Positions 2,614-4,994 of a stretch of 64,000 nt of DNA are shown here, one piece after another (position 1 is the first letter of the stretch; each line of letters starts with the position of its first letter). A model generated the notes under the pieces. That model saw only the letters and a list, made by a program, of their open reading frames with translations, was not told where the DNA came from and did no database searches. The stretch lies in NCBI RefSeq assembly GCF_003790525.1, contig NZ_CP033635.1. One strand, given 5' to 3'. The DNA is from Escherichia coli. Lineage in GTDB: Bacteria; Pseudomonadota; Gammaproteobacteria; Enterobacterales; Enterobacteriaceae. A program made the position numbers and the translations under genes.

Positions 2614-2751
2614 TATTGTGGCATTTTTCGGTTTTCAGGGGTAATGGTTTTTCTGTTTCTGGAAAGCGGCTCGCAATAACGTTTTCTGGCTGTGGGGTTT
2701 TCTCGCAACAGAAGAAACATCATTGCGTAGTAAAAGACAATGCACGCAGGC

Positions 2752-3033
2752 TTATTGCGCTGGTGGCCATTGCAGGGCGGTATGTAAAACACGCAGTACC
2801 GAGAGCGTATCGCCCTCCACTTGGTAGATCAGCACATAATGCGGCCTGACAACGGCTTCATGTGTACCAGCGACTCGTCCGGCCCGGTACATCTCCGGGC
2901 GTTCACAGGCCTGTTCCGCAATGGCTTCAAATTGATTATCAAGGGCTATTGCCGCTAGCGGATTATCTTTACTGATGTATTCCATGATTTGCTCCCTGTC
3001 AGACAGGGACATTGGCTTCCATTCCAGACGCAT
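2752..3033 (-). CDS. Type II toxin, ParE/RelE superfamily (93 aa)
   Basis: MRLEWKPMSLSDREQIMEYISKDNPLAAIA...HYVLIYQVEGDTLSVLRVLHTALQWP has the length and conserved pattern of ParE/RelE toxins; its ATG overlaps the stop of the upstream ORF by 1 nt (TAATG). Confidence 0.8.
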   Translation of the reverse strand: MRLEWKPMSLSDREQIMEYISKDNPLAAIALDNQFEAIAEQACERPEMYRAGRVAGTHEAVVRPHYVLIYQVEGDTLSVLRVLHTALQWPPAQ

Positions 3034-3473
3034 TAATCCCCCTTCAGCAAGGCTTTTTTACGGGCAGCAAATAGACTTTTGGCCTCTTCATGAGAGAGCG
3101 CCGGGCGTGGATCGTCAATGGCGGCCTGTACCTGTTCACGAAACCAGGCGTCATACGCGGCAGCTTCATGAGCTCGTTTTAATGCCTCTGCCCTGTCTGG
3201 TCGGGTCGTTTTCTTCTGACCGTCCGGGTCGTAATGAGAGGCGTCGACTTCAAACCGGGCAATACCAACATCTTTCAGGTAGTTGACAACCGTTTCCAGC
3301 CGTTTAAACAAGCGAATTTGCCGACTGCGTTGTGCTGCAAGAGGCCGTTCAGTGTGGCCGTATTTCACGGTCAACGACCAGCCTCCCTGGGTGCCAATAA
3401 CGTGTGCTGCATCCACTACGCCAGATTCAACCAGTTTATGTAAGGTTGAGTGATCGATCGTTTCTGGTGCCAT
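3033..3473 (-). CDS. Putative cognate antitoxin (146 aa) with a ParD/PaaA2-like C-terminal tail and an unassigned N-terminal domain
   Basis: ATG start with AAGAGG ribosome-binding site 8 nt upstream; C-terminal ...YDAWFREQVQAAIDDPRPALSHEEAKSLFAARKKALLKGD resembles the W-x-R...DPRPA tail of ParD/PaaA2-type antitoxins (from memory); translationally coupled to the toxin. Confidence 0.65.
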   Translation of the reverse strand: MAPETIDHSTLHKLVESGVVDAAHVIGTQGGWSLTVKYGHTERPLAAQRSRQIRLFKRLETVVNYLKDVGIARFEVDASHYDPDGQKKTTRPDRAEALKRAHEAAAYDAWFREQVQAAIDDPRPALSHEEAKSLFAARKKALLKGD

Positions 3474-3501
3474 AATGCGCTAACCTCTTTGTATACGGCA
3501 T

Positions 3502-3563
3502 GCAATTTATAATTAAAGATAGCGCAATTAATAATAAATTGCAGCACCTTAATCGTAAATTGC
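3502..3563 (-). promoter_or_regulatory. Putative promoter/operator of the toxin-antitoxin cassette: repeated GCAATT/AATTGC hexamers and a 13-bp imperfect inverted repeat
   Basis: gcaatttataatt (3502-3514) pairs 12/13 with aataataaattgc (3530-3542); further GCAATT at 3524-3529 and AATTGC at 3558-3563; AT-rich; 30-90 nt upstream of the antitoxin ATG. Confidence 0.45.
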
Positions 3564-3604
3564 CCAGGATAAAATTGCGGTAGAAAGAGATTTGTTGCGA
3601 ATAT

Positions 3605-3621
3605 GCCGGGCATCGCCCGGC
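3605..3621 (-). terminator. Hairpin just downstream of rhlE stop (7-bp GC stem, 3-nt loop); possible terminator
   Basis: gccgggc-atc-gcccggc located 9 nt after the rhlE stop codon; no strong U-tract. Confidence 0.35.
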
Positions 3622-3629
3622 ATAAAAGA

Positions 3630-4994
3630 TTACTGCGCAGCGGCAGGTTTACGCGGACGGCGACGGCGTTGTTGTTCGCCTGCCGGTTTGGCATCACCAA
3701 GACGACGAGATGTTTTTTCTGCGGGCTTCGCGCTAGCTGATTTCGCACCACCTTCTCCACGGCGTGGTTGCTGTTGACCGCGACCACCACCTTGCCCACG
3801 ACCGCCGCCGCCACGTTGCTGGCGACCGTTCTGGATCGGTTCGGCTTTGATTGACGGGTCCGGCTCATAACCCGGAATCGCAATGCGCGGGATCTCTTTT
3901 TTCAGCAGTTTTTCGATATCACGCAGCAGTTTGTGTTCATCAACACACACCAGCGACAACGCTTCACCGGTAGCAGCCGCACGACCGGTACGCCCGATAC
4001 GGTGGACATAATCTTCCGGTACGTTTGGCAGTTCATAGTTGACCACGTGCGGCAGCTCTTCAATATCCAGGCCGCGCGCAGCGATGTCAGTTGCCACCAG
4101 TACACGAATATCGCCCGATTTAAAATCAGCCAGCGCACGGGTACGCGCACCTTGCGATTTATTGCCGTGGATCGCCGCACTGCGGATGCCATCTTTATTA
4201 AGCTGTTCAGCCAGATGGTTAGCGCCATGTTTGGTACGGGTAAACACCAGCACCTGCTGCCAGTTCCCTTTCCCAATCATATGCGACAGCAATTCGCGTT
4301 TGCGTTTCTTATCGACAAAGTGAACGTGCTGGGTCACCTGATCAGACGCAGTATTGCGGCGTGCCACTTCGATTTCCAGCGGGTTGTGCAACAGTTTTTC
4401 CGCCAGGGCTTTAATATCGTCAGAGAAGGTCGCGGAGAACAACAGGTTCTGGCGCTTCGCTGGCAGTTTTGTTAACACGCGACGGATATCGTGGATAAAG
4501 CCCATGTCGAGCATGCGGTCAGCTTCATCAAGGACGAGGATTTCAACCTGATCCAGCTTCACTGCATTTTGATGTTCCAGGTCCAGCAGACGTCCCGGCG
4601 TTGCCACCAGCACATCAACGCCGCCGCGCAACTTCATCATTTGTGGGTTAATGCTGACACCGCCAAACACCACCAGCGAACGAATGTTCAGGTATTTGCT
4701 GTAATCACGGACGTTTTCGCCAATCTGCGCCGCCAGTTCACGGGTCGGGGTAAGAATGAGCGCACGTACCGGACGACGCCCTTTGGCGTGCGGCTGGCGA
4801 GTGATCAGGTGTTGCAACAGCGGCAGCGTAAAGCCCGCTGTTTTGCCGGTGCCGGTCTGGGCGCTGGCCATCAGGTCGCGGCCTTCCAACACCGCAGGGA
4901 TCGCCTGCTGCTGAATAGGGGTGGGTTCACGGTAACCCTGCTCGGCAACGGCGCGCAGGATATCAGGGCTTAAACCCAAAGAATCGAAAGACAT
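3630..4994 (-). CDS. rhlE: ATP-dependent RNA helicase RhlE (DEAD-box, 454 aa)
   Basis: ORF track 454 aa, [33 protein letters not shown]..., Gly/Arg-rich C-terminus. Confidence 0.96.

Follow-up and report, generated by a model that had tools for sequence, protein, structure and literature searches.

A ParE-type cassette between dinG and rhlE

The window, a 64,000-nucleotide stretch of the Escherichia coli chromosome, carries dinG (431-2581) and rhlE (3630-4994) on the minus strand, followed by cecR/ybiH and ybhG. Between dinG and rhlE lie two overlapping open reading frames, also on the minus strand, coding for proteins of 146 and 93 amino acids (Table 1). The longer is the frame that a preliminary description of this DNA had singled out as an oversized antitoxin candidate, and it is present with exactly the sequence quoted there. 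Its start codon is consistent with the alignment of homologues, and an AAGAGG motif lies 8 nt 5' of it (3484-3489). A third gene, which would be expected for a PaaR2-like regulator, is absent between rhlE and dinG.

Table 1. Genes, protein segments and predicted regulatory elements of the cassette, in coordinates of the window.
Feature	Position	Strand	Basis
Whole inserted cassette, 922 bp	2681-3602	-	BLAST against K-12: homology stops at 2680 and restarts at 3603
ParE-family toxin gene, 93 aa	2752-3033	-	ATG overlaps the antitoxin stop (TAATG)
Antitoxin gene, 146 aa	3033-3473	-	ATG at 3473, stop 3033-3035; RefSeq WP_000035214.1, "hypothetical protein"
PaaA2-type tail, putatively ParE-neutralising, residues 103-146	3036-3167	-	PF21217 and PDB PaaA2 matches; two predicted helices
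Linker, RPDR motif (91-94) and start of helix 94-120, residues 83-102	3168-3227	-	pLDDT; alignment A1
ParC-like alpha/beta domain (predicted fold), residues 1-82	3228-3473	-	AlphaFold2 model; NF041544; PF28031 on homologues
Extra half-site, AATTGC on the coding strand	3502-3507	.	22 bp downstream of the dyad's right arm
Predicted sigma-70 promoter	3516-3544	-	-35 CTGCAA (3539-3544), 17-nt spacer, -10 TATCTT (3516-3521)
Predicted main operator, 19 bp, GCAATT-TATTATT-AATTGC (GCAA-N11-TTGC)	3524-3542	.	Conserved dyad
Two GCAATT half-sites	3558-3563, 3573-3578	.	21 and 36 bp upstream of the dyad's left arm

The 93-residue protein scores above the cut-off of the RelE/StbE family TIGR02385 (38.3 bits against 27.9), and among solved structures it is closest to E. 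coli O157 ParE2 (5cw7_B, E 1e-6). [quoted passage not shown] In the copy of the example genome SMS-3-5, the toxin is annotated as a RelE/ParE family protein and its 146-residue neighbor as a hypothetical protein. PADLOC returned no defense-system match, and the PHROGs matches were to families of unknown function only.

In K-12, 707 bp including ybiA occupy the place of the 922-bp cassette (L090, 2765-3471). The exchange for ybiA, an N-glycosidase gene, is precise: it is bounded by the hairpin of the rhlE terminator (3602-3624) and by the upstream region of dinG. No flanking repeats or recombination sites were recognized at the junctions with K-12, and neither partition genes nor an Xer site were found near the cassette in the window. 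Of 5426 complete E. coli genomes, 324 (about 6%), SMS-3-5 included, have the cassette at full length. The sequence is 100% identical among many unrelated strains, and the cassette also occurs in Escherichia whittamii, where it is 98% identical at the protein level. For E. coli genomics, these results put right a "hypothetical protein" label carried by about 6% of the complete genomes, and they identify an accessory cassette that replaces ybiA.

The antitoxin has a PaaA2-type tail

Residues 104-130 match the Pfam PaaA2 family, PF21217, well enough to place the protein in it (E 4.2e-10, 39.9 bits). The PaaA2 structure 3zbe_A aligns to residues 82-139 (E 2e-4), and in the full-length AlphaFold2 model two helices, 94-120 and 128-144, correspond to PaaA2. 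That residues from about 105 to 146 form a PaaA2-like tail, as the preliminary description had it from the letters alone, is therefore confirmed by profile and structure matches. We regard it as practically certain that the 146-residue protein is an antitoxin with such a tail. It scores 47.1 bits against NF050103, the NCBIfam equivalog for the TA_RelB_antitoxin, below the curated cut-off of 50, and the "hypothetical protein" label in RefSeq is consistent with a score just under that line.

PaaA2 itself is encoded in the paaR2-paaA2-parE2 operon of the O157:H7 prophage CP-933P (PDB 3zbe, 5cw7). Residues from about 82 to 139 of the window antitoxin cover essentially the whole of PaaA2, and the motif Y-x-x-W-[FL]-R-x-x-V...DPRP is common to both. 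Because the tail resembles PaaA2 and the toxin is nearest to ParE2, neutralization of ParE would be expected to work as in PaaA2-ParE2. The two systems differ in that the window antitoxin has a folded domain of about 100 residues before the tail, and in that the window cassette has only two genes and is not a three-component PaaA2 system in the strict sense. PaaA2 has no DNA-binding domain, and transcription of its operon is controlled by the third gene, paaR2 (PMC8630535). Whether an ancestral DNA-binding domain of PaaA2 decayed was left open by the authors of that work (PMC8630535).

The N-terminal domain is probably ParC-like

At 146 residues, against 52-71 for the matched PaaA2 chains, the protein is about twice the usual antitoxin size, as had been noted, because a separate folded N-terminal domain is apparently fused to the tail. 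AlphaFold2 modeled residues 1-82 from a 100-sequence alignment with a pLDDT of 94.1 and a pTM of 0.81. The predicted topology is a helix (8-17), a three-stranded meander (22-28, 31-38, 41-46), a short fourth strand, a second helix (59-69) and a last strand (75-77). In the full-length model pLDDT drops at residues 81-100, consistent with a linker, and the prediction as a whole supports a separate folded module. So do the relatives of the domain, about half of which are proteins that stand alone. In alignment A1, whose members are close homologues with 61-86% identity to the window protein, the invariant columns number 43 and include R91, P92, D93 and R94. The helix that begins with RPD is also found in stand-alone ParC-like proteins. 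Acidic and basic residues are equally numerous in the N-terminal domain (10 each by manual count).

The preliminary description stated that residues 1-100 match nothing that could be named and called the domain unassigned. The first statement is true of a Pfam-A release without PF28031, in which these residues had no match. NCBIfam ParC (NF041544) does align to residues 6-83 (E 4e-8), at 32.7 bits against a cut-off of 95. PF28031, the recently added family "ParC-like", appears in the precomputed annotation of P0001, a cluster representative 99% identical to the window protein, and in that of almost every homologue, accompanied in the homologues by PF21217. By this annotation the domain is already assigned in Pfam, and the fused proteins are named in UniRef (for example "antitoxin PaaA2 family protein").

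The predicted fold resembled none of the known antitoxin DNA-binding folds in the fold search, and no solved structure was close. A ribbon-helix-helix match was found neither by sequence nor by fold, setting the domain apart from ParD, RelB and CcdA. Profile and fold searches likewise gave no Phd/YefM, AbrB/MazE or helix-turn-helix (HigA, HipB) match. Some entries of the family in AFDB are named "Phd antitoxin" or "RelB/DinJ"; these are automatic labels that none of our matches backs. "Partition protein C" was among the fold matches of the domain. No ligand-binding or protease-adaptor family was found in the profile searches.

The ParD-ParE systems (RK2; Vibrio cholerae ParD2-ParE2; PrpA-PrpT) resemble the window cassette in having two genes in an operon that starts with the antitoxin, an antitoxin made of an N-terminal domain and a C-terminal ParE-binding tail, and an operator at the promoter, which in the window is predicted. 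However, their antitoxins use a ribbon-helix-helix (PMC9731233), whereas the window domain is predicted to be alpha/beta with another topology. PrpA/PrpT was ruled out as a relative since PrpA is a ribbon-helix-helix protein (PMC9731233). Toxin-antitoxin modules of the Tn3 family were also checked, and none has this type of antitoxin.

The ParC proteins of NF041544, from pXAC33 of Xanthomonas citri and pJG1 of Acidovorax, are homologous to residues 6-83 and have the same size and predicted fold family as the window domain. Unlike the window protein, which belongs to a chromosomal toxin-antitoxin cassette, true ParC stands alone with about 104 residues, lies between parA-parB and rep, and has no toxin beside it. 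We found no description of its function in the literature searched. On pXAC33, TAGGTATATATATAC repeats are found 5' of parA and directly 5' of the true parC (L098, 2277-2375 and 3334-3374); in this plasmid family they probably serve as the centromere or as operators for ParB. The "ParC" of the IncP-9 plasmid NAH7, a helical protein of 150 residues (L092, 2016-2468), shares only its name with the ParC-like domain. It was ruled out as a relative by an hhalign probability of 0.2%, a name collision, and the deletion data on NAH7 parC therefore do not apply here. The name that NAH7/IncP-9 parC shares with the NCBIfam and Pfam families may mislead annotation transfer.

A conserved dyad overlaps the predicted promoter

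The preliminary description had noted repeats at about 3500-3565 upstream of the antitoxin gene. They are real: the 77 bp from 3502 to 3578 contain five GCAATT half-sites, the whole window 55, and the dyad within this cluster is the only GCAA-N11-TTGC match in the window. One half-site falls after the predicted -10 and before the ribosome-binding site (Table 1); relatives in Serratia, Photorhabdus and Xenorhabdus have a similar third half-site. The window -35, CTGCAA, coincides with the left arm of the dyad. In the relatives the left arm coincides with a -35-like TTGCAA, followed after 16-18 nt by TAnnnT directly behind the right arm. The promoter in the window was read by eye on this analogy and is tentatively placed, as a consensus promoter scan gave another, overlapping -35/-10 pair.

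The comparison covered 84 related loci, 80 of them from genomes of different species. A perfect GCAA-N11-TTGC is present in 49 of the 84 upstream regions and in 11 of 1312 control windows. After de-replication, 36 of 68 clusters have it as compared to 12 of 2666 control windows, about half versus 0.5%. The gap is always 11 nt and the position always -37 to -79 from the ATG. Allowing one mismatch adds about a dozen loci, and in about a quarter of the loci the dyad is not present. A Rhizobium (α-proteobacterial) plasmid copy of the cassette also has the dyad with one mismatch. It is found in Enterobacterales, Pseudomonas, several β-proteobacterial orders and Methylococcales, with the flanking sequence unconserved. 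As the dyad spans the core promoter, the arrangement is the classic one for autorepression; part of its conservation could be promoter constraint.

In a divergent clade that includes Gallionella, Nitrosospira and Solimicrobium, a different dyad, CCCRTTT...CGGG followed by TATAGT, is found upstream at about -62 (L062-L064, L067, L069, L071-L073, L081). The proteins of this clade also differ in the basic loop that joins strand 3 to helix 2 (residues 46-52): it is one residue shorter, AAKRG-A in place of AAQRSRQ. This is a hint that the loop may read DNA, the covariation of loop and dyad amounting to about one phylogenetic event. Yet other dyads occupy the same place in L060, L044, L046 and L093. 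GCAA-N11-TTGC is absent near the true parC genes of pXAC33, which have TATATA-rich, centromere-like repeats instead.

Distribution of the fused antitoxin

A search of 5.8 billion proteins returned 895 relatives, and all 120 of those listed are close full-length homologues. The N-terminal domain alone as query gave 457 clusters (50% identity). Of the 150 best, 53 have a recognizable PaaA2-type tail and 48 are stand-alone, the remainder being fragments, frameshifts or proteins with divergent tails. The two-domain architecture has hundreds of homologues in α-, β- and γ-proteobacteria and is encoded on more than 200 plasmids. For the ParC-like domain, tblastn gave 209 and 445 matches to plasmid records. 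The 84 loci come from Enterobacterales, Pseudomonas, Burkholderiales, Nitrosomonadales and Methylococcales, and in 79 of them an open reading frame for ParE directly follows the antitoxin. The pair is also found on plasmids of Xanthomonas, Rhizobium, Klebsiella and Serratia. The fusion architecture is thus already catalogued in Pfam and UniRef and well populated; no characterized member of the fused family was found in the literature searched. We describe the cassette as a ParE/PaaA2 module that has no separate regulator and in which the antitoxin bears a ParC-like domain.

Stand-alone ParC-like genes had no consistent partner gene in the contexts examined. One of them lies within an operon of overlapping small genes (L088, 2576-3844). 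The next product there has 57 residues, a weak match to the Fic antitoxin VbhA and an S-x-x-x-E-G motif; the contig stops within the gene after it, which is not recognizably Fic. In P0130, a metagenomic representative of 171 residues, the ParC-like domain with its RPD helix is continued directly by the second, C-terminal half of a ParE toxin, apparently through an in-frame deletion that fused antitoxin to toxin.

Predicted role of the ParC-like domain

We think it likely that the 146-residue protein is a two-module antitoxin, its PaaA2-type tail neutralizing ParE and its ParC-like domain binding the promoter dyad for autorepression. The C-terminal 45 residues or so would fold onto the toxin and neutralize it. 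The N-terminal domain of about 100 residues would dimerize, and the dimer would bind the 19-bp dyad GCAATT-N7-AATTGC that overlaps the -35 box and spacer. The flanking half-sites, about two helical turns away, may be bound together with the dyad. The antitoxin, probably with ParE as co-repressor, would in this way shut off its own operon. Such a fusion would provide in cis the repressor function that paaR2-paaA2-parE2 obtains in trans from PaaR2.

The case for dimerization, DNA binding and autorepression is comparative and proceeds by elimination. Since the cassette moves between classes of bacteria with just two proteins encoded, a binder of its own is the economical explanation. As these are ParE and the 146-residue protein, the N-terminal domain is the obvious candidate. 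We lean towards an operator-binding role for the domain itself. The preliminary description had offered such a role as one of two options, and the conserved promoter dyad and the lack of another cassette-encoded candidate speak for it, whereas the domain matches no DNA-binding fold or profile. The other option it offered, a sensor, drew nothing from the searches.

An alternative is that the N-terminal domain is an oligomerization or partner-binding module taken from plasmid-maintenance proteins and not a DNA binder. Its partner could be, for example, the partition or Xer machinery, and the dyad would be bound by another factor or be mere promoter architecture. Consistent with this, the family takes its name from proteins beside parA-parB and rep on Xanthomonas and Acidovorax plasmids, no DNA-binding fold was recognized in the domain, and the dyad's left arm is also the -35 box. 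Dif/cer-like Xer sites at a fixed distance 5' of about 18 cassettes, and Xer sites bracketing stand-alone ParC-like genes on small plasmids, also fit. However, the right arm (TTGC after exactly N11) has no promoter role and yet is equally conserved in the α-, β- and γ-proteobacteria, and one host factor common to all three classes is unlikely. The E. coli cassette, moreover, has no Xer site or nearby partition genes, and type II toxin-antitoxin operons are normally autoregulated via the antitoxin (PMC8630535). We judge this explanation unlikely.

It is still more improbable that the domain is a sensor or stability module that binds a signal or delivers the antitoxin to a protease (Lon or ClpXP, for example), timing the release of ParE. 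PaaA2 is degraded by ClpAP and ClpXP (PMC8630535), and a folded domain could modulate that degradation. Against this, no ligand-binding or protease-adaptor family is matched in the profile searches, the domain also occurs alone without any toxin, and the conserved dyad is left unexplained. That the pair is a decayed remnant whose long frame has no current function is very improbable: chromosomal toxin-antitoxin cassettes are often inert and the RefSeq name is hypothetical protein, yet both frames are intact, the cassette is identical in many unrelated E. coli and nearly so in E. whittamii, and alignment A1 has its 43 invariant columns.

Returning to the two-module antitoxin, a further reading can be put forward tentatively. 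The ParC-like domain may be an unrecognized class of sequence-specific DNA-binding domain that reads GCAAT-N9-ATTGC, and the fusion may be the ancestral form of PaaA2. The domain would then be a further operator-binding fold of type II antitoxins, beside the ribbon-helix-helix, helix-turn-helix, AbrB and Phd/YefM folds, and the dyad would be read through the conserved basic loop (residues ~43-58). The PaaA2 of O157 would have lost the N-terminal domain and become dependent on PaaR2.

PaaA2-ParE2 is a structural model system whose antitoxin is unusual in having no DNA-binding domain. With a widespread relative that has an N-terminal domain, a two-gene cassette and a conserved dyad, the question of domain decay in PaaA2 becomes directly testable. 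If the ParC-like domain does bind the dyad, a catalogued domain on several hundred plasmid records gains a function and a recognition sequence, and the role of the "ParC" proteins beside plasmid partition genes would also be clarified.

Xer-like sites and inverted repeats near related cassettes

In about 18 loci a dif/cer-like Xer site lies 5' of the cassette, with its distance and orientation fixed. It consists of a XerC arm, a 6-7 bp spacer and a XerD arm, for example GGTGCGGGCAA-tgtgcgg-TTATGGTAAAT, and is located about -117 to -132 from the antitoxin ATG in the loci listed (L001, L002, L005, L006, L047, L056, L058, L067, L068, L070, L071, L074, L078, L080, L081, L083); in L093 it is at 3379-3407. 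Matches to Xer-type sites number 21 in 130 kb near cassettes as compared to 8 in 454 kb elsewhere, which suggests that the cassette travels with Xer recombination sites or inserts beside them. A GTTATG element 5' of many cassettes was considered as an integron attC core, but this was dropped in favor of the dif/cer-like site because the full pattern of XerC arm, spacer and XerD arm fits.

On a Serratia plasmid and in Photorhabdus, a unit of about 960 bp comprising Xer-like site, promoter, antitoxin and toxin lies inside inverted repeats of 44-48 bp (L001, 4819-4866 and 5729-5776; L008, 3833-3876 and 4756-4799). The repeats are 93-96% complementary and end in GGGG, like the ends of Tn3-family elements; no target-site duplication was seen around either unit. 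In bacteria other than E. coli the cassette thus seems to move beside Xer sites or within small units bounded by inverted repeats.

Two small mobilizable plasmids, E. coli pRHB31-C04_3 and Aeromonas salmonicida pAsa10, carry a stand-alone ParC-like gene between two inverted Xer-type sites (L084, 2867-2895 and 3263-3290; L094, 12-40 and 408-435), one of which has a perfect XerC arm, GGTGCGCATAA. This bracketed layout resembles the "dif modules" of Acinetobacter plasmids.
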